Positions 2,966 through 14,235 of a stretch of DNA of 32,000 bases are shown here, piece after piece (the stretch's first letter is position 1; the number at the start of each line of letters is the position of its first letter). Where the stretch lies: positions 630,001 through 662,000 of the forward strand of contig OY970322.1 of assembly GCA_963716945.1 (NCBI GenBank), read 5' to 3'. Made by a program: the position numbers and the translations under genes. The notes under the pieces are model-generated. The model saw nothing but the letters and a program-made list of their open reading frames with translations, was not told where the DNA came from and did not search any database. The stretch is from Candidatus Saccharimonadota bacterium. GTDB lineage: Bacteria > Patescibacteriota > Saccharimonadia > Saccharimonadales > UBA4665.

Positions 2966-3058
2966 GCCGAGATTTGCCTGTTCTTACACCCAGAAAAAGC
3001 AGACGGATGTCTTCATAGGCTTGCTATTGGATATGAGGGTATATAAATGACCCTAATA

Positions 3059-3580
3059 TTATTTTTTAATAACAGTGAGAATCTCAGATTTTGTATCTAA
3101 GAAAATCCAGTCCGGTGATTTTAGGACTTCATTCACGCAGGCTACCATCGTTTGTTCTATTTCGTGGGCGTCTTCTCTAGCCGTTCTTCCTATAGGGCAG
3201 ATAGACAGTATGCCGTCCGGACGGATCACCCTTGTACACTCTTGAAAGAAACCGACTATCTCCCCAGGATCTTTGCCCCATAAAGGTAAGCTGTAGGTTG
3301 CCAGAGCTATATCAGCCGATGCATCAGGCACAGGTAAGTCATCCAGTTGAGCGAGGATTAGACGTGTGGCAGACTTGCCTTGCCTGGCTTCTTGCAGCAC
3401 ATCGGGGTTTTCATCAAATCCTGTAACGGTGGCTTTTACTCCTCGTGCCGCAAGGTCTGACGCAAGATCGTTATAACCGCACCCCAAGTCGTAAACCACC
3501 ATGCTTTCAAAGATGCCAACGGGTAACTCATGAGAGCGTAAGACATGGTCTAAGCCACCGCCTAACGAGGGAGTATGCAC
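3059..3580 (-). CDS. Class I SAM-dependent methyltransferase
   Basis: Motif I is VVYDLGCGYNDLASDLAARG. The later segment RVIRPDGILSI also fits. The GTG start lies 8 nt after the stop of the upstream gene, which suggests co-transcription. Confidence 0.8.
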   Translation of the reverse strand: MHTPSLGGGLDHVLRSHELPVGIFESMVVYDLGCGYNDLASDLAARGVKATVTGFDENPDVLQEARQGKSATRLILAQLDDLPVPDASADIALATYSLPLWGKDPGEIVGFFQECTRVIRPDGILSICPIGRTAREDAHEIEQTMVACVNEVLKSPDWIFLDTKSEILTVIKK

Positions 3581-3588
3581 GTGATAGA

Positions 3589-4290
3589 TTAACCGTCTAG
3601 CGTCGGAATATGTATCTTTCGCGCAGGCTCAGGCCCCACGTCGTGCAGAGGTTCAGAGCCGACATATATTATCTGTACGTCCGGGCCTACAAATCTCTGG
3701 TCAGCGCCTGCTTGATAGGCCTCTTGGTTACGTATAACGCCAGGCCAAGTCTCAGGTCTTTCGGTTGGCAAAGCTCCTCCGTCCAGCTCTTGCAGGACTT
3801 GTGTGGCACGAATAATTCTAGCCAGGTCTTGCTCGAAACGGCTCGCCGGCCTTGCAGCTATTATGTCTCCGCGTAACGTTGACCAAGGCATATCATAGCT
3901 GCCATCGGTAGGGTCTGAAGGGTCGGCATCTCCGCTAGAGTTATGCCGCTGAAAGCCTGTATTAAAGGTCACGGACACCCGGGGTTCTCGGTAGGAACCG
4001 CCTTGAAATCTAGGCCTCATCTCAATAAAGAAAAAATGGTCTTCGGTCTTGCCGCTGCCATCAAAGAAAACCGCCCCATTTAAAACAGCGGTATCCAATT
4101 CATCCGGTTGCAACGGTTCTCCCGTGCGGATGGATGATAAGACTTGCGCTAGCTCTACGGCAGCGTCAATCTGTCTGTTAATTTTATCGCCGTGTGTTGC
4201 AACGACATCAAGGCCCCAGTTATCTATGAACAAACTAGGTTGGGTATCGGTGCGAAAATCATTCCGGGACTCTATAGCTGCGGCTGACAT
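3589..4290 (-). CDS. Hypothetical protein (233 aa)
   Basis: ORF 3589..4326 in the track. I place the start at ATG 4290 (MSAAAIESRND...), which sits 7 nt after a -10 box. Confidence 0.65.
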   Translation of the reverse strand: MSAAAIESRNDFRTDTQPSLFIDNWGLDVVATHGDKINRQIDAAVELAQVLSSIRTGEPLQPDELDTAVLNGAVFFDGSGKTEDHFFFIEMRPRFQGGSYREPRVSVTFNTGFQRHNSSGDADPSDPTDGSYDMPWSTLRGDIIAARPASRFEQDLARIIRATQVLQELDGGALPTERPETWPGVIRNQEAYQAGADQRFVGPDVQIIYVGSEPLHDVGPEPARKIHIPTLDG

Positions 4291-4326
4291 GTTTACAAAT
4301 ATGACAGAAACAGCTAAAAAAGTCAA
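4291..4326 (-). promoter_or_regulatory. Putative leaderless promoter
   Basis: Minus strand: TTGACT (4326-4321), 17 nt, CATATT (4303-4298), then 7 nt to ATG 4290. Confidence 0.45.
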
Positions 4327-4381
4327 GCAAGGGGCAAGGAGATTATAACAAGTGGACTTCTCAACTTAGTTGTTGTCTGTA

Positions 4382-5245
4382 TCAACCCAAAGCGTGCGTC
4401 TCGAACTGGGCGTACATGGCCTCGAAATATTCCTGGGTGTATTCTTCCTCTAATGGTGCGCCGATCCGCTTGCAAAATATCGGCGCCCAGGCCAGGTTGA
4501 TAGCCGAGGCCGCGTAGGCGATGTCTTCCCGGATTGACCCGCCCAGCTGCTCGTACTGCCGTTTGACGTGGGGCCAGACCGGCCGGTCGGCCAGTTGGTA
4601 CAAGCTGAGAGAGGGGTTCGTGACTGTGAAATCGCCCCAGTCAACCAGGCCATGGACATGCCCGGTGCCGTCTACTTGCGTGTTGCTCAGGGTAAAATCC
4701 GCATGGCTCAGGGTGTTTGCGGAGGCCGATTTCAGGAGCTTGTCTTCCAAGTAGCTGGCGGCCTTTTTGACCCGAGCATTAACGCCCCGATCAGGTTCTT
4801 CGCGCATGACCAGGCCGGCCTTGTCTCCCAGGATATGTGCCAATAACTTATCTTTGTCTCCGAAGGTGCTTTGCCAGCGCCTGACGTAGGTTTTGGACCG
4901 GGTATGCAAGGCGAAGATAATCTTGCCTAAATCTTCACCAAGCCTTTTCGTTTGCCGCTCATCGAAATCAAGTATCGCCGCCCGGGCGCTGGTCCCCGGA
5001 ACGCGTTCCATACGGTTGCAGTAAACGTAGGCCTTGCCGTCTATTTTCCAGTTGCCTGCACCTACGACTTCCAATAACTTTGGAATGGTACAGCCGATGC
5101 TTAGGCCTTCGCCCTTCAGGCTGCCCAAAAAGCTTAGCTGTTGCTGTTCGTTTATGCCGTTAGCTTCGACAAGGTAAAACTTCTTGACCGCGCCGGCCGA
5201 GTCCGCGACGACAATCCCTCCGTGGCCCTCACCGATAATTTCCAT
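4382..5245 (-). CDS. Aminoglycoside phosphotransferase (APH)/choline-kinase family kinase
   Basis: It has a glycine-rich loop (GEGHGG), a lysine in AVKKF, a catalytic loop HADFTLSN (HxDxxxxN) and VDWGD (the DFG equivalent). Confidence 0.8.
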   Translation of the reverse strand: MEIIGEGHGGIVVADSAGAVKKFYLVEANGINEQQQLSFLGSLKGEGLSIGCTIPKLLEVVGAGNWKIDGKAYVYCNRMERVPGTSARAAILDFDERQTKRLGEDLGKIIFALHTRSKTYVRRWQSTFGDKDKLLAHILGDKAGLVMREEPDRGVNARVKKAASYLEDKLLKSASANTLSHADFTLSNTQVDGTGHVHGLVDWGDFTVTNPSLSLYQLADRPVWPHVKRQYEQLGGSIREDIAYAASAINLAWAPIFCKRIGAPLEEEYTQEYFEAMYAQFETHALG

Positions 5246-5527
5246 AATAAAGCAGATACCTATAAGCCCTAGCTTAGGCTAGCGGTTCGCAGCCTTTCCT
5301 TGCTTCAACATGTTAACTATACAGGCAGAACGAAACGTCAGGCAATGCTGCCGGTGCGCGGGCACTGCCAGCTTTAATTTACTCTGCGGGTTCGGACTCT
5401 AGGAGGTGGGCTACGACTCTATGCGTAGTGAATAATCTAGTTCCGAAGTCTTTTCTATCGGTGTCGTGAACGCCAAGCTTTCCTGGCTGCGAACAATAAA
5501 GTCTTTGTAAATAATAAAAGGCTTAGT

Positions 5528-5977
5528 TTAACGGCCGATACTTATCATTTGGCCGGCCCCCCACTCGTTTAGGCCGTCTGCCGGCGCTACGCCCATAACA
5601 CTCTCTATACTTCCCGACGGGCCTCTTAATAAAGGCCGAAGCTCCGGTTCGGCTAAGCTTACGTCACCCCCAAGAACCATGGACCAAAATACCTCTTGAG
5701 CCAAACGCGCCCCGTGCATTACCTCGCCCAAGGCGCTTGGGGCTGTCCTTTCGGTATAGGTCTCACCCATTACCGGCACCTGTAGGTAAATTATATCTCG
5801 GAGGAGGGCCTCGCCAATGTAGGGAGGTGAAGTGTCTGCGTAGGCCGGTGCTATGAACCGTACTCCTTCATCCGGCCTTAACCAAGTATCGCTTTGAGCA
5901 TGCAAGCCTGCAGCCGCTTCGGCCGCATCATGCGTAAAGCCTTCTGGCGGGGAAATGCCCTGGTAAGAAACTCCCAT
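5528..5977 (-). CDS. Hypothetical protein (149 aa)
   Basis: ORF with ATG 5977 placed 6 nt after an extended -10 box. No family recognised. Confidence 0.65.
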   Translation of the reverse strand: MGVSYQGISPPEGFTHDAAEAAAGLHAQSDTWLRPDEGVRFIAPAYADTSPPYIGEALLRDIIYLQVPVMGETYTERTAPSALGEVMHGARLAQEVFWSMVLGGDVSLAEPELRPLLRGPSGSIESVMGVAPADGLNEWGAGQMISIGR

Positions 5978-6063
5978 ATCTATATTATATCATATAAATA
6001 CAATATAGTAAATCTTAACTCCTATTCCGGGGCCTGCCCAGATGATTTGGTTATAATTTGATT
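5978..6063. promoter_or_regulatory. Divergent leaderless promoter pair
   Basis: Minus strand: TGaTATAAT (-10 at 5989-5984), then 6 nt to ATG 5977. Plus strand: TATAAT at 6052-6057, then 6 nt to ATG 6064. No SD on either side. Confidence 0.45.
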
Positions 6064-6624
6064 ATGGCCCAAATTATTATCGATAGTAAGCTGACGCTTT
6101 CGGAGGCGTTAAACGGTTCGGCGGCACCCGAAGAGGTTATCGCAGCCCTTGCGATTGTAGACATAAGGTACCTCGGCTTTGATAATAGAATCCATCAAGG
6201 CCAAATAGTAATACACAAAGCGCTGCGAGCCGAAGTAGCCGGCATCTTCAAACAGCTATTGCTCAATAAATTCCCTATCTTTAAGGCCGTGCCGATCGTG
6301 GCTTATGGCTGGGATGACCACAAGAGCATCAAGGACAACAATACCTCGGCTTTTAACTACCGGAACGTGTTCGCCACGAACCGGCTCTCCAACCATTCCT
6401 ACGGCAGAGCCATAGACATCAATCCGTTGGTAAATCCTTATGTGACCGAAGACGGCATAGTCAGGCCCGCCGGGCCGGAATATGATCCCGCCGCCAAAGG
6501 CGCCATCGCCGACGGCGACAAAACCGTAAGTCTATTTCTTGATTGCGGCTGGGAATGGGGCGGCCACTGGAAAGAAGAATACGGCTACGTTGACTATCAG
6601 CACTTTCAGAAACCGGTTCCCTAG
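6064..6624 (+). CDS. M15 family metallopeptidase (VanY / D-Ala-D-Ala carboxypeptidase-like)
   Basis: SNHSYGRAID matches the SxHxxGxAxD zinc motif exactly. The downstream VDYQHF supplies the DxxH ligand. I place the start at ATG 6064 rather than the track's TTG 6058. Confidence 0.8.
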   Translation: MAQIIIDSKLTLSEALNGSAAPEEVIAALAIVDIRYLGFDNRIHQGQIVIHKALRAEVAGIFKQLLLNKFPIFKAVPIVAYGWDDHKSIKDNNTSAFNYRNVFATNRLSNHSYGRAIDINPLVNPYVTEDGIVRPAGPEYDPAAKGAIADGDKTVSLFLDCGWEWGGHWKEEYGYVDYQHFQKPVP

Positions 6625-6657
6625 TCTAGATACTTCTGGGTCTCGAAATTCTTAAAT

Positions 6658-7155
6658 TTAGCTTTGGATTTCCCGTAGCAGCTTATCGCCCACGTTATTC
6701 GTAAAGCCAAGCTCCCGGTATAAGGGTATTAAAGTATTGGTTGGCGCTAATTCCGTAGCTAATCGCTTAGCCCCAAGGGCATCGGCAATCCGAACCCTTT
6801 CCCGAACTATAGTTCTGGCTAAGCCTCTATGCCTATGCCGAGGACTTATCATTAAGTGGCTCAATTCGCCAAAGACGGTTATATGTTTCAACGTTAACAG
6901 CCCTATACCGACAAGCTCGTTCTCGTTTGAGGTTCTTACCCCTACTTCAATAATATGATCCCCATAGATATCAGGACTTCCAGAGGGCCAACTGGCGCGA
7001 TCAAGCCCAGAGCTAGATGGTCCGTTCACTTCCTCGTCGAGTGTACGCAGCTCTTCTCTTCCGGCTTCTGCACCGCTTGCAAAATAGTAACCGACCGGCA
7101 GCTCCAGCCGGTTATAGGTAACTGCAACCTCCGGGCTGATAGCAAGCTGCGCCAT
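6658..7155 (-). CDS. GNAT family N-acetyltransferase
   Basis: The acetyl-CoA binding motif A is MISPRHRHRGLARTIVRERVRIADALG, followed by LYRELGF. I place the start at ATG 7155 (MAQLAISPEV), directly downstream of a promoter module. Confidence 0.85.
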   Translation of the reverse strand: MAQLAISPEVAVTYNRLELPVGYYFASGAEAGREELRTLDEEVNGPSSSGLDRASWPSGSPDIYGDHIIEVGVRTSNENELVGIGLLTLKHITVFGELSHLMISPRHRHRGLARTIVRERVRIADALGAKRLATELAPTNTLIPLYRELGFTNNVGDKLLREIQS

Positions 7156-7194
7156 AATAAACAAAATAATACCACAAAAAGCATTATTTGCATA
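7156..7194 (-). promoter_or_regulatory. Cassette promoter module
   Basis: The minus strand reads TATGCAAATAATGCTTTTTGTGGTATTATTTTGTTTATT-ATG. The TATTTT at 7168-7163 lies 7 nt before ATG 7155. Confidence 0.5.
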
Positions 7195-7205
7195 GGGCTT
7201 ATGCT

Positions 7206-7229
7206 TGGCTCCCGGACTGGATTTGAACA
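7206..7229 (-). repeat. Displaced copy of the tRNA-Asn 3' end (T-arm plus acceptor plus CCA), att-like direct repeat
   Basis: TGTTCAAATCCAGTCCGGGAGCCA aligns with the tRNA 3' end GGTTCGAATCCAGTCCCCGGAGCCA (12878-12854) at 21 of 25 positions, in the same orientation. There is no matching tRNA 5' half upstream. Confidence 0.7.
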
Positions 7230-7299
7230 AATTAAAATAGGCCTGAAATTGGTAAAGAGCTCAACAAGCCATAGGTACATGGCATTATAAGCCAAAATA

Positions 7300-7314
7300 T
7301 GCTATAATATATTT
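7300..7314 (+). promoter_or_regulatory. Putative leaderless promoter (extended -10)
   Basis: TGcTATAAT (hexamer at 7303-7308), then 6 nt to ATG 7315. No SD. Confidence 0.45.
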
Positions 7315-8655
7315 ATGTACCGCCCAGACTTTACAGACTTTGCCCCATATCAGGGTGCGCCTAATGCCGCCGTCGTATCAGGTTTCATTAATTATGGTGC
7401 CAACCACGAGGCAAAAACTGTCCTCAGCGACGTTTATTTGCAGCAGCCAGGCGAGCTGTTGCGCCCAGTAACGGTAGCTAAAACCGTTATCGCCTGGCAA
7501 GGACCTGAGCCCGCGTGGAAGATACCCATTAAAGACGTTATCCAATACAGTGAGCGCAGTTTGGCAAAAGGCGGTATCGTCGAGCCTGGTTTAATCGATG
7601 GTGAACGCGGTCATCAAGTTACTGCCTGGGCAGCAATGGCAAGCCCGGCTGATTTACTGGTGCAGCGGGCCATGGTTGGCTTTTTCAGTAACTGGAGTCT
7701 CGAGTCACCCGAACAATCGGTGCAAAAACTTTATAGGGTTGGCGGTGGTGATCGTGCAAAAGCGCCACTAGTCAGACACCGGCTATATGATTTGCTCTGG
7801 AATAGCACTACTGGTTACTCAATTGAAGGCCTCAACGAAGTCATGGTAAGAGAAGGCCATCACCCAACAACACTGGCAAGGAAGCTTGAGGGTCTGGACC
7901 AGGAAGGGATTATAGAAGTTCGGTCGAAAAGCATCGGTTACAATCCTGTCATGAAAGTCACCGATAGCGAATACCGCCACGTAGCGATCGGCTTCTTAGA
8001 CACTAGCTTGGAAACGCAAGCAGCATATGCTGCCGCTCAAGAACTTGGCATCGACGCCACCATAACTGTTGACGACTTTGTTAATAAGGCTATGGAACAA
8101 ATGCCCGGTGCTGACCCAGTAGTATTACGCAAGTATATAATCGGCAGTTTCAGCGAGGGAACCAATCACTTCCCTGGCTTGCAGCCTGTCGATAGGTTGG
8201 GCATACCGATTTCAGATCTCAGTGTTGTCGAGCTATCTCCTGACGTGCGTCAGGCTGTTGGCGAGCTTGTAATTGGCGTGGGCAAAATTTTAGCCGGCGA
8301 AGGTCTGCTTCCTTATGTTAAGGAAGCGCAAAGAATTATGGGTAACCCCTCGCAAGTGCGCGAGCTAATTGCTAAAGCCGGTAGGTTTTCGGCTGTAAAG
8401 GCTGGGCACTTTCATGGCAGTGAGCGGCTGACTAATCAAATGAGAAGCATTTTGGAAACCGGGCCACAGACTGCTGAGAGTATGAGAGCCGAACTAGTAG
8501 ATCGGTACGGCCGCATGATCGGTCATGAGAGAATACACGCCATTCTGAATGAGCTTGTTAGTACCGAAAACATAGGTACTGCCTATGAACCTGTCCATCC
8601 TCATTCGGCTATCACGCGTAAGGTCTACAAAATGCAGGCTCAGCAGGAAAGCTAG
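7315..8655 (+). CDS. Hypothetical protein (446 aa) with two winged-helix-like segments
   Basis: Long clean ORF. The segments RHRLYDLLWNSTTGYSIEGLNEVMVREGHHPTTLARKLEGLDQEGIIEVRS and QMRSILETGPQTAESMRAELVDRYGRMIGHERIHAILNELV resemble wHTH layouts by eye. No catalytic motif recognised. Confidence 0.75.
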   Translation: MYRPDFTDFAPYQGAPNAAVVSGFINYGANHEAKTVLSDVYLQQPGELLRPVTVAKTVIAWQGPEPAWKIPIKDVIQYSERSLAKGGIVEPGLIDGERGHQVTAWAAMASPADLLVQRAMVGFFSNWSLESPEQSVQKLYRVGGGDRAKAPLVRHRLYDLLWNSTTGYSIEGLNEVMVREGHHPTTLARKLEGLDQEGIIEVRSKSIGYNPVMKVTDSEYRHVAIGFLDTSLETQAAYAAAQELGIDATITVDDFVNKAMEQMPGADPVVLRKYIIGSFSEGTNHFPGLQPVDRLGIPISDLSVVELSPDVRQAVGELVIGVGKILAGEGLLPYVKEAQRIMGNPSQVRELIAKAGRFSAVKAGHFHGSERLTNQMRSILETGPQTAESMRAELVDRYGRMIGHERIHAILNELVSTENIGTAYEPVHPHSAITRKVYKMQAQQES

Positions 8656-8704
8656 GTAGAAGAGCCGGCCACGAAACCTGGCCTGTCTCTGTTGGTGCTT
8701 GGTC

Positions 8705-8734
8705 TGGCTGCCTTTAGTGGACGCACTTCGCAGC
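8705..8734 (-). repeat. Cassette 3' element copy
   Basis: The minus strand reads GCTGCGAAGTGCGTCCACTAAAGGCAGCCA and starts 20 nt after the stop of 8755..9465. It aligns with the copies at 12354-12325, 11919-11889 and 10178-10150. Confidence 0.5.
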
Positions 8735-8754
8735 TTACGTCATGAGTAACCGGA

Positions 8755-9465
8755 TTATCGTGAGGCGATTATCAGTAGACTACCGGCATGACCGCCTAAT
8801 TTTCTTATTATGTCTTCGTGCCTTTCGGCGTTAGTATCGTCGGGCTCGCCAGCTTCGATATCAAATTGAGCCTCGCGCGAAGCGAAGCGCGGCCTTAAGC
8901 CGGCCATCTTTAACATCTCGGCTATGGCTTGGGCATTTCTATCGTAATCAAAAATTACGGCCCGGCCGTCCGGAGCAAGCAGCCTGGCGACTTCGTTGGT
9001 CATAACCTGCTCGTCATGATTATGTTCGCAGCTCGGAGCGGATGATTTATCGTATACGCGGGAAATGTAAACTTCGTTAGCGATCGCGCCGGGCAGGCCA
9101 TACCTTAAATTTTCCTCGGAGGGGTCGTCTAAGTTTCTGCCAAATGACCTTTCCCGTTGGAGGGTTATATTTTCGCCGGCTCTCTGACTTCGCAATCTCT
9201 CAAAAGCGACTTTCGCTCCGAGTTCGTAGTATCCGAAGCTGAAGTTCTCCAGACCTATATAGCGACTTAGCCCGCCGAAATTACGGTTTAAACCGTTGGG
9301 ATGCATGCCGGGACCTATTTCAACCAGGCACCAGACCGGTGCGGCTACTCTGTATTCGGCGTACTCGAATGGATCGATGAGATCGCTTGGATTTATCTCA
9401 AGCGCTTGCCTAATTCCTAATTCCTTGTCGACCGGATTCAAAGCCGCAACCCCAGGCGTTGACAT
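8755..9465 (-). CDS. Probable class I SAM-dependent methyltransferase
   Basis: LVEIGPGMHPNG is motif-I-like, and VARLLAPDGRAVIFDY fits the later MTase strand. I place the start at ATG 9465 (MSTPGVAAL), 6 nt after the module -10. Confidence 0.65.
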   Translation of the reverse strand: MSTPGVAALNPVDKELGIRQALEINPSDLIDPFEYAEYRVAAPVWCLVEIGPGMHPNGLNRNFGGLSRYIGLENFSFGYYELGAKVAFERLRSQRAGENITLQRERSFGRNLDDPSEENLRYGLPGAIANEVYISRVYDKSSAPSCEHNHDEQVMTNEVARLLAPDGRAVIFDYDRNAQAIAEMLKMAGLRPRFASREAQFDIEAGEPDDTNAERHEDIIRKLGGHAGSLLIIASR

Positions 9466-9500
9466 AAACATAAAATACCACAAAACGTGGTATTTGTATA
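9466..9500 (-). promoter_or_regulatory. Cassette promoter module with a perfect 9-bp inverted repeat
   Basis: The minus strand reads TATACAAATACCACGTTTTGTGGTATTTTATGTTT-ATG. The arms AAATACCAC (9495-9487) and GTGGTATTT (9481-9473) are exact reverse complements separated by 5 nt. Confidence 0.55.
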
Positions 9501-9525
9501 GTGATTATGCTTGGCTCAAGATATA

Positions 9526-9561
9526 GGTCTGGGCTAGCTGCCTTTACGTCCCTGGCGCGCC
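9526..9561 (-). repeat. Cassette 3' element, variant copy
   Basis: The minus strand reads GGCGCGCCAGGGACGTAAAGGCAGCTAGCCCAGACC, downstream of the stop of 9581..10042. It shares TAAAGGCAGC..CAGACC with the 8705-8734 copy. Confidence 0.4.
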
Positions 9562-9580
9562 TGATGATTACGTATAGGTA

Positions 9581-10042
9581 CTATTGTACCGGCGGCCAGA
9601 CTTGTTCGGGGTCTCCTTCAATTCGAGCCATAAGTACTTGGTCCATTCCTTGATAGGTTATGCAAGTACTACCGTGAATCGGAAAAGTCGTAAGTCGATC
9701 CCAAGGCATATCAGCCAACTCCGCCGCTCTAGCCAGATGCTCATCCGGACCATAGTCTGATTGTATAAATTCCGCCTTCCATCCTATTTCTCGAGCTACA
9801 CTCTCCAGCGCTTTAGCAAAACCGCCGATTTTAGGCGTAATAAATTCCAAGTTTCTAAAAGCGGCAACAGCAAGCGATGTTTTTATAAGTTCGGCGTTTG
9901 GTAGCCTATCTTCTCCGTTGTCAGTATGGATTTCCAGGATTGCCTTGGCCCACCAAAGTCCTATAGCCTCATATACATCCTTGGCTTCCCCTACGGGCTT
10001 AAGGACTTCTCGTCCGCCTTCAAATCTTGCATCCGCAGCCAT
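9581..10042 (-). CDS. Hypothetical protein (153 aa)
   Basis: ORF 9581..10051 in the track. I place the start at ATG 10042 (MAADARFEGG), downstream of a consensus promoter. Confidence 0.7.
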   Translation of the reverse strand: MAADARFEGGREVLKPVGEAKDVYEAIGLWWAKAILEIHTDNGEDRLPNAELIKTSLAVAAFRNLEFITPKIGGFAKALESVAREIGWKAEFIQSDYGPDEHLARAAELADMPWDRLTTFPIHGSTCITYQGMDQVLMARIEGDPEQVWPPVQ

Positions 10043-10080
10043 AATTATCATATTATATAAAAAACTTCAATAATTGTCAA
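10043..10080 (-). promoter_or_regulatory. Consensus sigma70-type promoter
   Basis: Minus strand: TTGACA (10080-10075), 17 nt, TATAAT (10057-10052), then 9 nt to ATG 10042. Confidence 0.6.
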
Positions 10081-10149
10081 TAATTAAAGGGTAAGATAAA
10101 AAATCCGGCAGCGTGAATGCGGACCGGGTGTTTCGTCGAGTTTGCGATG

Positions 10150-10178
10150 CGGCTCCCCCAGTGGGTGAGCTGCGCAAT
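10150..10178 (-). repeat. Cassette 3' element copy
   Basis: The minus strand reads ATTGCGCAGCTCACCCACTGGGGGAGCCG and starts 3 nt after the stop of 10182..11048. It can form the hairpin GCTCACCC-ACT-GGGGGAGC with one mismatch. Confidence 0.5.
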
Positions 10179-10181
10179 AAC

Positions 10182-11048
10182 TTAGTAAATGGACGGGATT
10201 GCGCGGGCCTGCTCGATTCTATCGATCGCTACTTCGGTACTACCGTCCCAGAAGGCTAGGAGCATTGGCATAATGCTGCCACGCCATCTAACTCCTAGGC
10301 GAAGTGTTGGACAGCCGCTGCCCGAGCTGCATTCTTTGGCCTTTTGTTTGGCCCAGGGCGTTAGATCTACGCTTTCTTGGCGGGCATCTAATACTAAATG
10401 CTCGGGATCTATGACATCATTTGCTCGAGATTCACTCATCAGCCTAGAAGGTATGCCGACAAACTTGCTAAATTCAGGCCGGCCGGGTCTTCCCTCGACA
10501 GTGTCATTTATCATCGCCAGACGAGATATTAATCTGCTGCTATTCCTGACAATTTGTTCATTGGCCGACTGCTCGTAACCACTGTCTTGTAGAAGAAAAT
10601 TAAATATGCTCCGTATAGCTAAATTGGCATCCTGCACGGCTGCACTAGCATTGCGCAGGCAGCCTCTCGCGATGCGGACAGCCTGCTGCTGCGTCGCATC
10701 AATGGAGCCTGCCATGGCCTCCCGGAACGGATTAGTCAATCCATTATCAATTGGGTCCGGAAACCGTCCAAAATAGTAATAATCCCTGCCCATCTCCATC
10801 CAGATAGGTACATATTGGTTCGCAGCTGCACTAGTAGAGCGGCTGAAAACATGATCACTTTTAGACACCGACCTAGCAAGCTCTGACGCAACAGCATAAC
10901 CTAGGGGAGCTAACATGTACGTATCAAAGTCTGGGTAAAGCCGGCCTATTGCATGAGGAGTAGACTTGGCATCTGCTATTCTTTGTTCTAGGTCGTTAGA
11001 AAAAGCTTCTGAGTCAGCAGCTTCTTGCATAAACGCTTCGAAAGCCAT
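10182..11048 (-). CDS. Hypothetical protein (288 aa)
   Basis: ORF 10182..11066 in the track. I place the start at ATG 11048 (MAFEAFMQEAADSE), 6 nt after the module -10. Confidence 0.7.
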   Translation of the reverse strand: MAFEAFMQEAADSEAFSNDLEQRIADAKSTPHAIGRLYPDFDTYMLAPLGYAVASELARSVSKSDHVFSRSTSAAANQYVPIWMEMGRDYYYFGRFPDPIDNGLTNPFREAMAGSIDATQQQAVRIARGCLRNASAAVQDANLAIRSIFNFLLQDSGYEQSANEQIVRNSSRLISRLAMINDTVEGRPGRPEFSKFVGIPSRLMSESRANDVIDPEHLVLDARQESVDLTPWAKQKAKECSSGSGCPTLRLGVRWRGSIMPMLLAFWDGSTEVAIDRIEQARAIPSIY

Positions 11049-11083
11049 AAAAATAAAATACAACAAAAAGCAGTATTTGACAA
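11049..11083 (-). promoter_or_regulatory. Cassette promoter module
   Basis: Minus strand: TTGTCA (11083-11078), 17 nt, TATTTT (11060-11055), then 6 nt to the ATG. It is preceded by AGCC and then GGGAGCCA (11095-11088). Confidence 0.55.
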
Positions 11084-11230
11084 GGCTTGGCTCCCATGAC
11101 GTTGATCAATTGGGACCAGATTAAGTCAGAAATAATAGAGATGTGTCGGGTAGTTAAAACTTCACAGCAGTTTAATATTAAAGAAGCTGAGGGCCGTGGC
11201 TAGAATCCGGGTAAGTATTCAGAGCCGAAG

Positions 11231-11812
11231 TTAAGAACCTACAACTTTACCCGTGCAAATGTTTCTATATTGGCTGGGATTAAAAGTCTGTCCATATTGC
11301 GGGAAATACCATTCAACAGCGTTATAGGACGGTTTGCCCTGGCACATACCTAGATTGAACGCTACGACAGTTGCTTGTTCTGTAGTGCCATCGGCCACAT
11401 CTTCATTACCCATTACGTAGTCAGTCATTCCTGTGCCTGTAGCCTGTGTGCCTCCCCATGACTGCCAGGTTATATTAGTGACTATGCCAGTGGGGTCACC
11501 TCCATTATTGATTATTTGAGGCTTCACGGTGCCGTAACCTTGCTGACCCGTGTCAGGCGGCCCCCATAGCTGCCCAAGTACAGGACTTGGCGTGTTAGTT
11601 GTTGTGTCTGAGCCCTTCTCTGCAGTATTAGAATTGTTGCTGGCAGTAGCCCGCTTTTTGCTTGTAGTTGTAGCGGTTACTGAAATAGGACTTGTTTTGC
11701 GGTCTTTTTGATAAACGTACCAGCCAGCGCCTATTATAAGAACAAGCAGAGCTATTATTGATAAAATGCTAACAACTCCGAAACCTTCTTGTTTACTGTG
11801 ATGTTTGCCCAT
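11231..11812 (-). CDS. Membrane-anchored exported protein (193 aa), unknown function
   Basis: It has an N-terminal TM helix (GFGVVSILSIIALLVLIIGAGWYVY) followed by a Thr/Ser-rich linker. A -10 TACTAT (11825-11820) lies 7 nt before ATG 11812. Confidence 0.75.
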   Translation of the reverse strand: MGKHHSKQEGFGVVSILSIIALLVLIIGAGWYVYQKDRKTSPISVTATTTSKKRATASNNSNTAEKGSDTTTNTPSPVLGQLWGPPDTGQQGYGTVKPQIINNGGDPTGIVTNITWQSWGGTQATGTGMTDYVMGNEDVADGTTEQATVVAFNLGMCQGKPSYNAVEWYFPQYGQTFNPSQYRNICTGKVVGS

Positions 11813-11888
11813 GTCATTTATAGTATCAAACGACCATACTGCAATTGAACCGAATAAATTCCTAGAGATTAATAGAGGCGAGCTTTCC

Positions 11889-11919
11889 TGACTCCCTCCT
11901 AATGGACGAGCTGCGCAAC
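11889..11919 (-). repeat. Cassette 3' element copy
   Basis: The minus strand reads GTTGCGCAGCTCGTCCATTAGGAGGGAGTCA and starts 22 nt after the stop of 11942..12280. Confidence 0.5.
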
Positions 11920-11941
11920 TTTTGTGAAGCAGAATTCATTA

Positions 11942-12280
11942 TTAACTTACATCTGGTGAATGAGGAGGTTCAGGTGCATCAGCAGCATCGAGCAAACGAT
12001 TAAGCTGGTTAATACTTTCTTGTGAACTGAGTCGCTCGATTGCCTCAATGGCAGATTCACCGGTTTGCAAATCTGTTTTTCTATATGGACAAGCCAAGCA
12101 GCCTAGAGTTAAAGCGAGTGTGGCCCTTTGATAATCCGCACTCATTTCGTTATAAGTTATTTCAAAGCCGGTAGGGTATTTGGCACAGACCATATTACCG
12201 TTTGCATTAGAGTATGGTCTTTGTACTACGGCACGTACTTGACAAGTGTCAAACGCTTTTTGAGAGCGACTTTTTTTCAC
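11942..12280 (-). CDS. Hypothetical protein (about 112 aa). The start is ambiguous: GTG 12280, or the conserved ATG 12284, which is out of frame.
   Basis: The ORF body is in the track (11942..12301). The module-positioned ATG 12284 is in the +1 frame relative to the body, across an A7 run (12277-12271). GTG 12280 is the first in-frame start after the promoter. Confidence 0.55.
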   Translation of the reverse strand: MKKSRSQKAFDTCQVRAVVQRPYSNANGNMVCAKYPTGFEITYNEMSADYQRATLALTLGCLACPYRKTDLQTGESAIEAIERLSSQESINQLNRLLDAADAPEPPHSPDVS

Positions 12281-12284
12281 GCAT

Positions 12285-12320
12285 AAAACTAAAAATATCA
12301 CAAAAAGTGATATTTGACAA
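12285..12320 (-). promoter_or_regulatory. Cassette promoter module with a perfect 9-bp inverted repeat
   Basis: Minus strand: TTGTCA (12320-12315), 17 nt, TGTGa-TATTTT (12297-12292), then 7 nt to ATG 12284. The arms AAATATCAC (12315-12307) and GTGATATTT (12301-12293) are exact reverse complements. Confidence 0.55.
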
Positions 12321-12324
12321 GGTA

Positions 12325-12354
12325 TGGCTCCACCTAGTGGACGAGTCTCGCAAC
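12325..12354 (-). repeat. Cassette 3' element copy ending in tRNA-like GGAGCCA
   Basis: The minus strand reads GTTGCGAGACTCGTCCACTAGGTGGAGCCA and starts 10 nt after the stop of 12365..12814. The next promoter module follows after 4 nt. It contains the hairpin TCCAC-TAG-GTGGA. Confidence 0.55.
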
Positions 12355-12364
12355 TGCCAAGTTT

Positions 12365-12814
12365 CTAATATTCTGCTGTTTCATCCTGCGGGAATACCGC
12401 CTTCAATCTTTGAAGAAGAAACCATGCTCGTCTGTCGTCAATGAAATCAGAAAAAGTGCTATTGCAATCCTCATCCATTTCGTCATAGTGCACCCTTCCG
12501 TCATCTTTCAGCGTGATGTGTCCTTCGGCTATTTCATCGTCATGCAGCGAAAGCTGGGCTATGTCGTGATTATTGTAATCCAAAGCCTCGGACGTCTCGG
12601 TCATTAGATAAAATGCATAACGTTTCTGCTCGGGAGCAAATGCCAATCCCGCCAATAGTTTAGGCCGTAACGGCTCAAGTAATATATCAGCTATTCTAGT
12701 GCCAAAGTCTCCCGTGCGGGTTTGGGGATGCTCAAGTGCATTAAATAGGACGAAGTTTCTAAGATCCTGAAGATAATCGCCTTCAAAACGGGGAGCTTCA
12801 TAGACATCCGGCAT
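12365..12814 (-). CDS. Hypothetical acidic protein (149 aa)
   Basis: ORF with ATG 12814, 6 nt after the module -10. It is the first gene after the tRNA. Confidence 0.7.
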   Translation of the reverse strand: MPDVYEAPRFEGDYLQDLRNFVLFNALEHPQTRTGDFGTRIADILLEPLRPKLLAGLAFAPEQKRYAFYLMTETSEALDYNNHDIAQLSLHDDEIAEGHITLKDDGRVHYDEMDEDCNSTFSDFIDDRRAWFLLQRLKAVFPQDETAEY

Positions 12815-12849
12815 AAAACTAAAATACCATAAAAAGTGATATTTGGCAA
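12815..12849 (-). promoter_or_regulatory. Cassette promoter module abutting the tRNA
   Basis: Minus strand: TTGCCA (12849-12844), 17 nt, TATGg-TATTTT (12826-12821), then 6 nt to ATG 12814. The -35 box begins only 4 nt after the tRNA CCA end. Confidence 0.55.
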
Positions 12850-12853
12850 TTTA

Positions 12854-12928
12854 TGGCTCCGGGGACTGGATTCGAACCAGCGACCTAGGCGTTAACAGCG
12901 CCCCGCTCTACCGCTGAGCTACCCCGGA
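12854..12928 (-). tRNA. tRNA-Asn (anticodon GTT), 75 nt, CCA encoded
   Basis: I folded it by hand. The parts are: acceptor TCCGGGG/CCCCGGA, D-arm GCTC-AGCGGTA-GAGC, anticodon arm GGGCG-CTGTTAA-CGCCT, variable AGGTC, T-arm GCTGG-TTCGAAT-CCAGT, discriminator G, then CCA. Confidence 0.93.
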
Positions 12929-12975: not shown

Positions 12976-14235
12976 ATGCTCTTGCTGAAGACCGCGCGGT
13001 TTGTTGGTACAATAATTAATGCTATGCAGGATGACGCGCCGAATCCGCCGCCAGATGAACCGACCGTTGAGCCCGTCGACGAACCGACAGACGAAACCGG
13101 CAAATCCGCGGTTACGCCCTTGCCCGGGCCGCAAGAAACGCTACCGGTTCCGGCGCCCAAACCGCCGCGCAACTGGAAGCGATGGCGCAAAGTAGCGGGC
13201 CTCGTAGTTCTGATTATTATCGTCGCGGTTGGGGCCTGGCTGTGGGGCCGGCATGGCGGCCCGCCCAAAAAAGCCGCTTCGACGGCCAGCCAAGCCGTAA
13301 CGATGCCTAAGAAAACTGCGGCGGCTGCGGCCAAAGTCCAAGGCGTCCAGCTCGACCCGAACAAGGATTACGGCAACAAATACGCCAACGGCATCCTGCC
13401 CGTCGGTGACGGCAAATACGTTACGTCCGGCCCTAAGCAGGGCTATGTCTATGCCTGCAGCCAGTATGCCCAGAACCTGTCCGGCGGCCAGGGCGGCGCC
13501 AGTACCCGCGGGCCGTGGTTCACGGATAATAACACCGAGTATAACGTCAACGAGAAGCTGCATGTCGAGGGCAGCGTCATGTGGCAGGCCAGCTTTTCGG
13601 ACGTCCTGTCCGGCGGTACGCGGACTATCATTACTAATGATTTGCCCGACCACCCGACCGGTATTTTCCCGATTATGACGACCGACCCGGCCTACGCTTA
13701 TGACCACAACCCCAATACCATTAAGGGCCAGACCCTGACCTACGTCCTCAATGCCGACCCGGTTTACGGTTCGCCCAGCTGTATGGGCGGCGAATCGGGC
13801 ATCATGCTGACCGGCGTGGCGCTGTTTAACGCCTTTGATGCCGGCGGGCGTGACGCCGGGGCCTGGGAAGTCCAGGACGCGTGCGACGGGCATCCGCAAA
13901 CGGACGGCATTTACCACTACCATACCTTGAGCGCTTGCATCAAAGACACCAGTGTCCGGACCGTCATCGGCTATGCCCTCGACGGCTTCCCGATTACCGG
14001 GCCGGAGGTCGGGCCGAATAATATCCTGACGACGTCGGACCTCGACGAGTGCCATGGCCTGACCAGCCAGATTAACCTCGACGGCAAGCTGGTTACGATG
14101 TACCACTATGTCATGACGGAGGATTTTCCGTACTCCGTCAGCTGTTTCCGCGGTACGGCTATCCAGCCGCCTGACCTGGCGCTAGCCCGGCCAAGCCAGT
14201 CCGGCCAAGGGCAAAAGGCGCCGCCTAAGCCTTAG
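12976..14235 (+). CDS. YHYH-motif protein, membrane-anchored (alternative start ATG 13024)
   Basis: It has a Pro-rich N-terminus, a TM helix (VAGLVVLIIIVAVGAWLW), and then the signature DGIYHYHTLSAC plus a second MYHYVMT. A possible TTGAAC-17-TTAATA promoter lies at 12936-12964. Confidence 0.8.
   Translation: MLLLKTARFVGTIINAMQDDAPNPPPDEPTVEPVDEPTDETGKSAVTPLPGPQETLPVPAPKPPRNWKRWRKVAGLVVLIIIVAVGAWLWGRHGGPPKKAASTASQAVTMPKKTAAAAAKVQGVQLDPNKDYGNKYANGILPVGDGKYVTSGPKQGYVYACSQYAQNLSGGQGGASTRGPWFTDNNTEYNVNEKLHVEGSVMWQASFSDVLSGGTRTIITNDLPDHPTGIFPIMTTDPAYAYDHNPNTIKGQTLTYVLNADPVYGSPSCMGGESGIMLTGVALFNAFDAGGRDAGAWEVQDACDGHPQTDGIYHYHTLSACIKDTSVRTVIGYALDGFPITGPEVGPNNILTTSDLDECHGLTSQINLDGKLVTMYHYVMTEDFPYSVSCFRGTAIQPPDLALARPSQSGQGQKAPPKP

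Follow-up and report, generated by a model that had tools for sequence, protein, structure and literature searches.

Recombinase-less single-gene units downstream of tRNA-Asn in Saccharibacteria: a probable integration hotspot of large serine recombinases

The tRNA-Asn locus and its junctions

Downstream of its sole tRNA gene, the 32,000 nucleotides (nt) of Candidatus Saccharimonadota DNA analyzed here (GenBank assembly GCA_963716945.1, contig OY970322.1, positions 630,001 to 662,000; hereafter the window) carry an array of one-gene units separated by eight junctions. The tRNA-Asn(GTT) gene occupies 12854–12928 on the minus strand (ARAGORN; Rfam tRNA, 69.3 bits), and its 3' end, CCAGTCCCCGGAGCCA, with GGAGCCA at 12854–12860, is the left half-site of a bacterial attachment site (attB) in the interpretation developed below. 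The adjoining island (~3–12.9 kb) has a GC content of 0.43–0.53 as opposed to 0.56–0.62 in its flanks, which bears out the AT-rich tract of about 10 kb 3' of tRNA-Asn described in an earlier reading of this stretch made from the letters alone (the sequence-only reading). On the high-coordinate side, Pfam identifies smpB, the ATP synthase operon and other core genes. The open reading frames (ORFs) of the island mostly match no Pfam family, the exceptions being a GNAT acetyltransferase, an M15 peptidase, an APH-type kinase and a methyltransferase. The locus has the attributes of an integration hotspot in that it adjoins a tRNA 3' end, has an atypical GC content, varies among close relatives and keeps a conserved flank. 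Pfam scans of all sizeable ORFs of the window found no recombinase, transposase or phage gene, in agreement with the absence of a recombinase noted in the sequence-only reading.

A repeat search recovered a single family of copies at 12821–12860, 12292–12331, 11055–11094, 9472–9511, 7166–7205 and 1473–1512. The first five belong to junctions that had been described before and that the search and a reading of the minus strand both confirm at the positions given, and the sixth is new. Unless indicated otherwise, all features below lie on the minus strand. Junction 0 (12815–12853) consists of the linker TAAA and a promoter module at 12821–12849 (TTGCCA, 17 nt, TGgTATTTT), with an ATG 6 nt further on; junction 1 (12285–12324) has the linker TACC and a module at 12292–12320 whose palindrome AAATATCAC/GTGATATTT is perfect (z = -2.1); and junction 3 (11049–11095) reads GGGAGCCA with the linker AGCC and a module at 11055–11083. 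In junction 5 (9466–9517), GAGCCA is followed by the 11-nt linker AGCATAATCAC and a module at 9472–9500 with a palindrome fold of z = -3.1, and in junction 7 (7156–7205) the 11-nt linker AGCATAAGCCC precedes a module at 7166–7194. The distinction of a 4-nt and an 11-nt linker class was correct, as was the 13-nt identity GAGCCAAGCATAA between 9517 and 7211. Across related loci, labelled with L-numbers below, linker length is likewise bimodal (3–5 nt or 11–12 nt), and the long class, AGCATAAGCAC, is also found as the 3' flank of tRNA-Asn in L010, L087 and, shifted downstream by a single base, L117.

The sequence-only reading had taken the junctions for re-copied tRNA ends, which is mostly wrong. 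A true partial copy of the tRNA-Asn 3' end, from T-loop to CCA, can be read from the sequence only at 7206–7229 (TTCAAATCCAGTCCGGGAGCCA, ~20/23 positions; it differs from the tRNA by an indel and was missed by the ungapped search), and the other junctions share just GGAGCCA. This heptamer alone occurs at chance level in the window (6 copies vs. 4.8 expected), and the signal must therefore lie in the flanking sequence. Where the flank is still recognizable, GGAGCCA forms the end of a conserved 30-nt element, GTTGCGAAGCTCGTCCACTAGGNGGAGCCA, so that in most junctions the apparent tRNA end represents the last 7 nt of this element. Degenerate relics proposed at 5473–5495 and 3014–3031 were not recovered at ≤3 mismatches and are unsupported, and an accretion zone extended through them is accordingly not demonstrated. 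The module copy at 1473–1501, which lacks GGAGCCA and precedes the ORF at 776–1465, suggests that the variable zone reaches at least ~0.8 kb. Next to it, the C-terminal OmdA half of a DUF1905/OmdA gene (1529–2065) is 47% identical to a cassette common to the arrays of L009, L032 and L042; given this likeness and the core-less module of the next ORF, the variable zone may extend past the GC-rich genes near 2–3 kb.

The 29-nt module has the general form TTGYCA, 17 nt, TGnTATTTT and is followed after 6–7 nt by the ATG, a spacing that implies a leaderless mRNA. Each unit has its own -35/-10 pair, as the earlier claim of a separate promoter for each unit would have it. Its consensus has four matches in the window at ≤3 mismatches, with 0.00 expected from shuffles. 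In ~0.9 Mb of related loci, searched at ≤6 mismatches, all 36 matches lie downstream of tRNA-Asn on the tRNA strand, and all but three of them follow G(G)AGCCA after 3–13 nt; none was found in the upstream core flanks of the related loci at the same threshold. Neither do such copies occur at many loci unrelated to tRNA ends, nor is the similarity of the junctions that of ordinary promoters; either of the opposite results would have spoken against the sequence-only reading. The module is hence not an ordinary promoter and is tightly tied to the core and the locus; other promoters of the island have different spacers.

The spacer of the module contains a 9-bp palindrome, AAATAYCAC-N4-5-GTGRTATTT, which folds in most copies (z down to -3.1; 85.6% of cells pair). 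Its covariation is no better than that of shuffles (49 of 500), so that an RNA terminator hairpin and a protein-binding palindrome are indistinguishable. With a -35 box, an extended -10 box and the palindrome plus T-run, the module may both end upstream transcription and start a leaderless mRNA. Island genes without a module (promoters at 10052–10080, 5984–6012 and, on the plus strand, 7279–7308) also have the -10 box 6–7 nt before the ATG and no Shine-Dalgarno spacing, and leaderless expression hence seems general for the region.

The 30-nt element and the recombinases of related loci

The 30-nt element sits after ORF stop codons and matches twice in the window (12325–12354 and 8705–8734; 0.07 expected). 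The first copy, P arm 1 (GTTGCGAGACTCGTCCACTAGGTGGAGCCA), reads WLHLVDESRN in antisense and is regarded as the scar of a large serine recombinase (LSR) tail terminating in the core; in L122, the LSR gene has this same element at its end. The second, P arm 6 (GCTGCGAAGTGCGTCCACTAAAGGCAGCCA), reads WLPLVDALRS. Two further arms are degenerate, namely P arm 2 at 11890–11919 (GTTGCGCAGCTCGTCCATTAGGAGGGAGTC, 8 mismatches, core mutated to GGAGTCA) and P arm 4 at 10150–10179 (TTGCGCAGCTCACCCACTGGGGGAGCCG, core mutated to GGAGCCG), and the sequence TGATCAACGTCATGG preceding junction 3 resembles an L114-type P arm with a deletion.

Several observations connect this element with a recombinase gene. Its antisense encodes W-L-P-L-V-D-E-L/F-R-N/T, and variation is greatest at the third base of the proline codon; the codon periodicity is slight (entropy 0.67 at third positions vs. 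0.56 and 0.49) and is not relied on. In Paceibacteria-type loci, conservation extends over ~115 nt, corresponding to the last 37 codons of an ORF in which synonymous changes are seen. In L008, an ORF (6000–6410) with homology to the C-terminus of an LSR passes through the element and extends 100 codons beyond GGAGCCA. A tblastn search with this fragment matched ORFs that lie immediately 3' of tRNA-Asn and are encoded on the other strand (L046, L047, L109, L114 and L059), and their C-termini read into the tRNA (…SCTDGQLWLRGLDSNQR, the antisense of the acceptor and T arms). By sequence comparison, the 30-nt element can thus be identified as the P arm of the attachment site of a mobile element (attP) and, at the same time, as the C-terminal coding tail of its recombinase, with GGAGCCA as the common core.

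The possibility that the P arm is a tRNA-like or terminator RNA was rejected, as no consistent fold was found. Five P arms folded no better than shuffled sequences (z -1.6 to +0.25) and had no common structure of the kind expected of attC sites. Rfam at gathering thresholds, applied to the window and 12 loci, reported only tRNAs at these loci and matched neither the 30-nt element nor the module. Among viral contigs, neither the P-arm pattern nor a relative of the L046 LSR was found.

In at least ten loci (L043, L046, L047, L049, L059, L066, L090, L109, L114 and L115), tRNA-Asn borders directly on an LSR gene, which does away with the framing of the mechanism as unknown, since relatives carry a recombinase exactly at this site. 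Their tails read WLRGLDSNQRP, the tRNA antisense; the LSR of L090 is interrupted, and its frame reading into the tRNA spans only 92 amino acids (aa). The LSRs of relatives measure 507–547 aa and match Pfam Resolvase and Recombinase in L046 and Resolvase, Zn_ribbon_recom and Recombinase in L049, and Pfam recombinase domains are also found in L114 and in the contigs L121 and L123 described below. Across the ten loci, at least three LSR subfamilies with ~27% mutual identity occupy the same position. Within one LSR cluster (≥90% identity), most members end in differing tRNA-antisense tails, and two proteins, P0286 and P0288, end in …SQLWLPLHTSISN and …SQLWLALVDTLRT, the reading of the element itself. 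Some ten different tRNA-antisense tails are found on recombinases of ≥90% identity among the proteins P0280–P0292, from which it follows that the same element recently entered tRNA-Asn genes that differ in sequence and belong to different hosts.

Both the integrated and an unintegrated state are represented among the related loci, the latter by three contigs. In L122, the element and core are continued by LSR coding sequence within the LSR gene (GTTCGCAACGTGTCCACTAGTGCGAGCCA followed by TAACTGAC). L123 is a contig of 7,223 bp with a terminal overlap of 28 nt and no tRNA; it encodes an LSR, Rep and SpoVG, has attP inside the LSR gene and is apparently a free circular form. L121, a similar contig of another lineage, likewise has no tRNA. 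None of these three contigs contains the module, and the idea that a module inside full elements marks the place where cargo is cut out was rejected. The integrated state is exemplified by L114, in which tRNA-Asn is followed by the recombinase, a Phage_CRI-type Rep, SpoVG and an FtsK-gamma protein; the right-hand site (attR) lies at +6.47 kb with an arm encoding WLPLHDSIRN, and beyond it come a small Dabb cassette and another degenerate arm. This locus therefore reads as left-hand site (attL), 6.5-kb element, attR and small cassette.

The attachment sites can be set side by side: attP in L123 reads …GTAGGGGGAGCCA followed by TAACTGAC, attL in L046 reads tRNA…CCCCGGAGCCA followed by TAACTGAC, attR in L114 reads …GGAGGGGGAGCCA followed by AGCATTAACAC, and a tRNA flank that looks unoccupied (L087) reads …GGAGCCA followed by AGCATAAGCAT. 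In this comparison attP, attB, attL and attR are related by exchange at the short core, and the junctions of the window are of the attR type.

Partial copies of the recombinase gene are widespread: the best 120 matches to the C-terminal fragment of L008 (P0014–P0133) all measure 100–240 aa, hundreds of contigs of the Candidate Phyla Radiation (CPR) encode only these C-terminal 100–240 aa of the LSR family, and P0065 is a Rep/LSR deletion fusion with the N-terminus of Rep. A group I intron interrupts the anticodon loop of tRNA-Asn in L115 (12048–12325; Rfam RF00028, 69.8 bits, E = 1e-17) and is suggested in L119, L076 and L099. In the intron-bearing relatives the LSR still abuts the 3' exon, and the tRNA-Asn of the window has no intron at the equivalent position (12894/12895). 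Among the Pfam families matched by at least two members of a set of 114 neighboring ORFs (single matches not shown), no recombinase was found.

Variability of the locus and its cassettes

A scan for the 30-nt pattern with one genome per species yielded 35 loci, about half of them from Saccharibacteria and several from other CPR lineages, and in 14 of the 35 the element lies 0.5–3.7 kb downstream of tRNA-Asn on the same strand. Arrays of P arms are found in L002 (six in 6.4 kb), L009 (five in 4.9 kb), L006 (five) and L034, L042 and L117 (three each). A metagenome scan anchored on smpB gave 80 related loci, in most of which the order smpB, tRNA-Asn is kept and in which homology stops at the tRNA or at the module. 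Thirty smpB-anchored loci, the window included, extend 1 kb or more past the tRNA; five of them carry canonical P arms, six modules and seven a recombinase, and 13 any of these. The tRNA-Asn 3' flank is extremely variable. L041 and L042, with ~90% nt identity to the window in smpB and the neighboring gene, share with it only the tRNA and the first module and have no array content in common. The locus is consequently hypervariable between relatives, and the invariant gene order that would have contradicted the sequence-only reading is not observed.

Individual cassettes are found again in other arrays, and the homology stops at the GGAGCCA core. The clearest case is cassette A, whose ORF in the window (12365–12814, 149 aa, no Pfam match) follows tRNA-Asn directly. 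In L002–L004 it lies between a 431-aa ORF and a VbhA/Fic pair, and in L005 it is preceded by an insert of 300 nt and followed by another ORF, so that three contexts are known. Between the window and L002, homology runs from GGAGCCA to GGAGCCA plus 3 nt. The homologues in L002–L005 are 90–93% identical at the aa level, and a ratio of nonsynonymous to synonymous substitution rates (dN/dS) of 0.09–0.12 indicates purifying selection. Between the window and L005, nt identity amounts to 89% for cassette A and to only 71% for smpB, a difference that speaks for horizontal transfer; cassette A is hence a real gene and a horizontally shared cassette. Four more cassettes are common to arrays in different neighborhoods, with boundaries at or within 5 nt of the core (sets L006/L053, L029/L035, L009/L032/L042 and a 230-nt non-coding unit). 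Circular junctions of cassettes were not seen.

The assemblies of L001, L041, L047, L048, L063, L064, L067 and L071 break at or just after tRNA-Asn, as would be expected if populations carry alternative sequences behind an identical tRNA. A 20-kb Logan contig that carries proteins of the window also ends inside tRNA-Asn.

The units of the window are bounded by att-type sites, lack recombination genes and consist of single genes, mutually unrelated as stated in the sequence-only reading. Cassette B (11942–12301, no Pfam match) is probably a frameshifted or decaying gene: the frame opened by its leaderless ATG at 12284 is closed after 11 codons, immediately behind an A7 run, and its 119-aa frame starts with GTG at 12301 inside the promoter. 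Alternatively, slippage at the A7 homopolymer could account for this. Cassette C (11231–11812) encodes 193 aa with an N-terminal membrane helix and has its own TTGCAG/TATAAA promoter, and cassette D (10182–11048, 288 aa) has no Pfam match. Cassette E (9581–10080) combines a consensus promoter at 10052–10080 (TTGACA, 17 nt, TATAAT) with a 153-aa ORF at 9581–10042, and cassette F (8755–9465, 236 aa) again has no Pfam match. ORF G (7315–8655, plus strand, 446 aa) is inverted relative to the array, leaderless from a TATAAT at 7303–7308 and distantly homologous to the cassette that precedes cassette A in L002 (22% identity, E = 1e-9). The GNAT acetyltransferase ORF (6658–7155, PF00583) is driven by junction 7.

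A non-coding unit, ~230 nt long in relatives, starts with GACCAAGCA, holds a hairpin (…GACCGGGTTCC.TGACC…) and lies 3' of tRNA-Asn or of a P arm (L069, L090, L044, L024 and L035); in the window, ~8650–8704 keeps its 5' start and the hairpin after P arm 6. The unit might be a terminator or a small RNA. On the other side of the tRNA, a YHYH-domain gene (12976–14235) lies between smpB and tRNA-Asn, which are only ~50–60 nt apart in most relatives; a YHYH homologue follows smpB only in L080 and L081, and the gene is a second, separate insertion at the locus.

How the array may have arisen

Serial site-specific insertion at the tRNA-Asn terminus, as put forward in the sequence-only reading, is the best reading of these observations, and the locus is probably an LSR-driven integration hotspot with integron-like, recombinase-less cassettes that LSRs move in trans. 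According to this model, the 3' end of tRNA-Asn serves as the attachment site of a family of small integrative elements (~6.5–7 kb) in Saccharibacteria and other CPR bacteria, which carry an LSR, a rolling-circle Rep and SpoVG. The LSR gene spans its own attP, with its last codons (W-L-P-L-V-D-E-L-R-N…) forming the P arm and ending in the core GGAGCCA, with which the tRNA ends as well. Integration fuses the body of the gene to the tRNA, leaving a protein that ends in tRNA antisense (…WLRGLDSNQRP), and the 30-nt tail remains as attR on the other side of the element. Repeated recombination at the core would have built up the eight junctions of the window, and most units would consist of a 3–12-nt linker, the 29-nt module, a leaderless ORF, the 30-nt P arm and GGAGCCA, without a recombinase. 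The LSRs of full-length elements may insert, excise and reshuffle such single-gene cassettes in trans at the core, in the manner of integron cassettes or cis-mobilizable elements (CIMEs), and the module would insulate and express each cassette. Sequence comparison shows the site with its core, the recombinase family, the free and integrated states of full elements, the hypervariability and the sharing of cassettes bounded by the core, whereas the transport of the small cassettes in trans and the function of the module are inferred.

This model must be taken with caution for several reasons. Canonical LSRs recombine only attP with attB and are strict on both half-sites, and serial insertion beside an occupied tRNA requires that the LSRs tolerate differences in the half-site to the right of the core. 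The 32-kb window, taken from a genome of 1.1 Mb, contains no recombinase; an exact-cluster look-up with six LSRs of relatives returned no member on the contig of the window, a more distant LSR still being possible. On their right the cassettes have the module, which does not resemble the LSR coding sequence that makes up the right arm of the LSR elements. The mutated cores of two P arms (GGAGTCA, GGAGCCG) and the unrecognizable arm of junction 5 mean that the array is probably in part a fossil. Finally, the tRNA copy at 7206–7229 is not predicted from an LSR event and suggests at least one event of another kind.

A more far-reaching proposal, which we regard as possible and advance tentatively, is that the locus represents a serine-recombinase counterpart of the integron, evolved independently and dedicated to gene capture in Saccharibacteria and other CPR bacteria. 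The tRNA-Asn end would act as an attI-like dock and the 30-nt mimic of the LSR tail as an attC-like site, each cassette would bring its combined terminator and leaderless-promoter module, and LSRs of small plasmid- or phage-like elements would capture, excise and reshuffle cassettes in trans. Like integron arrays, including clusters of attC sites lacking integron integrases (CALINs), the locus holds one-directional, unrelated single-gene cassettes that each end in a conserved site and are shared and reordered between genomes, and its array can be free of a recombinase. Unlike in integrons, there is no IntI, the site is linear, 30 nt long and without an attC-type fold, each cassette has its own promoter instead of a common promoter (Pc), and a tRNA end takes the role of attI. 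The comparison with an integron-like array made in the sequence-only reading thus holds for the layout and fails for the integrase, the fold and the promoters; none of the three hallmarks of integrons (IntI, a folding attC, mostly promoterless cassettes on Pc) is present.

It is also conceivable, though unlikely, that the units are deletion remnants of full 6–7-kb LSR elements and that small units never move. The great frequency of recombinase remnants in CPR genomes (the 100–240-aa matches and the P0065 fusion mentioned above), the degeneration of several P arms in the window and the occurrence of full elements and small units side by side in L114 and L008 would fit such an origin. However, random deletion would not repeatedly leave a module 3–12 nt past the core or set ORF stop codons against the P arm, a one-gene unit recurs with core-to-core limits in unrelated arrays, and the full elements are without a module.

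We consider it rather improbable that the ~75-nt conserved junction of P arm, core and module provides homology arms for RecA-mediated swaps of taken-up DNA, even though the junctions are conserved across species, the window is without a recombinase and natural competence is found in this phylum. Beside the tRNA, cassette A shares on its left just the 7-nt core with its other contexts, homology on the right stops 3–5 nt past the core even where no module follows, and the arms are short and 80–90% identical.

Still less can be said for a true integron or an unseen tyrosine recombinase that recognizes a folded site, an explanation we hold to be very improbable. The layout does resemble a cassette array without integrase, and a T-loop-to-CCA copy such as that at 7206–7229 is a typical trace of tyrosine integrases. 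Against this, no tyrosine-recombinase signature was found in the window by Pfam or in the ~0.9 Mb of related loci by a heuristic search (regular expressions and tblastn with XerC, XerD and lambda Int C-termini), the P arms fold no better than shuffled sequences, the cassettes have their own promoters, and the site can be shown to be the tail of a serine recombinase gene. That ordinary promoters follow GGAGCCA by chance, as the chance frequency of the heptamer and the module at 1473 without it might suggest, is already refuted by a module that is not expected at all in shuffles and is confined in relatives to this locus next to the core, and by the different spacers of the other island promoters.

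Returning to the LSR-driven hotspot, several known systems invite comparison. With other LSR integrative elements, those of the relatives have in common the Resolvase, Recombinase and Zn-ribbon domains, a short core shared by attP and attB, free, apparently circular as well as integrated forms, and a small size with replication genes. They differ in that they target a tRNA gene at its very 3' end, that attP lies inside the LSR gene, whereby integration swaps the C-terminal tail for tRNA antisense, and that the site gathers tandem recombinase-less one-gene units; the defining encoded recombinase is absent from the window and present at the same site in relatives. The integrases of Sulfolobus spindle-shaped virus (SSV) type in archaea are tyrosine recombinases with attP in the integrase gene and a tRNA target, and integration splits and inactivates the gene. 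An attachment site within the recombinase gene, alteration of this gene upon integration and a tRNA target are common to both systems, whereas only the last 10–37 codons are exchanged here and the tRNA antisense supplies a similar tail. The location of attP inside an LSR gene with swapping of the tail is the unusual feature of the system, and no description of an LSR gene that spans its own attP with a tRNA-antisense tail swap was found in the searchable literature.

The CIMEs of streptococcal integrative and conjugative elements (ICEs) are att-flanked, lack recombination genes, accrete in tandem and depend on functions provided in trans; they rely on tyrosine integrases and are larger, decayed ICEs. 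The units described here resemble them in being att-flanked, devoid of recombination genes and in tandem with recombinase-bearing elements, but are compact, hold one gene each and have a conserved 5' module dedicated to them. Among described systems, the tycheposon-shaped tRNA islands of Prochlorococcus come closest, hypervariable regions beside tRNA genes in a streamlined genome, in which successive integrations push older elements inward and scattered pieces of att sites persist together with degraded integrases; large serine recombinases are used by a minority of tycheposons (bioRxiv 10.1101/2020.12.28.424599). Hypervariability on the tRNA side, successive integration and leftover att fragments are shared with the present locus. 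Tycheposons are multi-kb elements with partial tRNA copies, in contrast to the single genes with a standard promoter module found here, whose repeat mimics an LSR tail. No literature on this locus of Saccharibacteria was found.

Saccharibacteria have genomes of ~1 Mb and live on other bacteria, and little is known of how they gain and lose genes. The locus seems to be a major gateway for accessory genes and can be recognized across the phylum by its 30-nt signature, and the cassettes of relatives include acetyltransferase, kinase, peptidase, Fic/VbhA and HicAB genes. The LSR, attP and the tRNA-Asn attB would constitute a natural site-specific integration system for a group with few genetic tools, and the 29-nt module might serve as a portable signal for the expression of leaderless genes. 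Taken together, the locus is real, widespread and useful, and its array suggests how reduced genomes may swap accessory genes.

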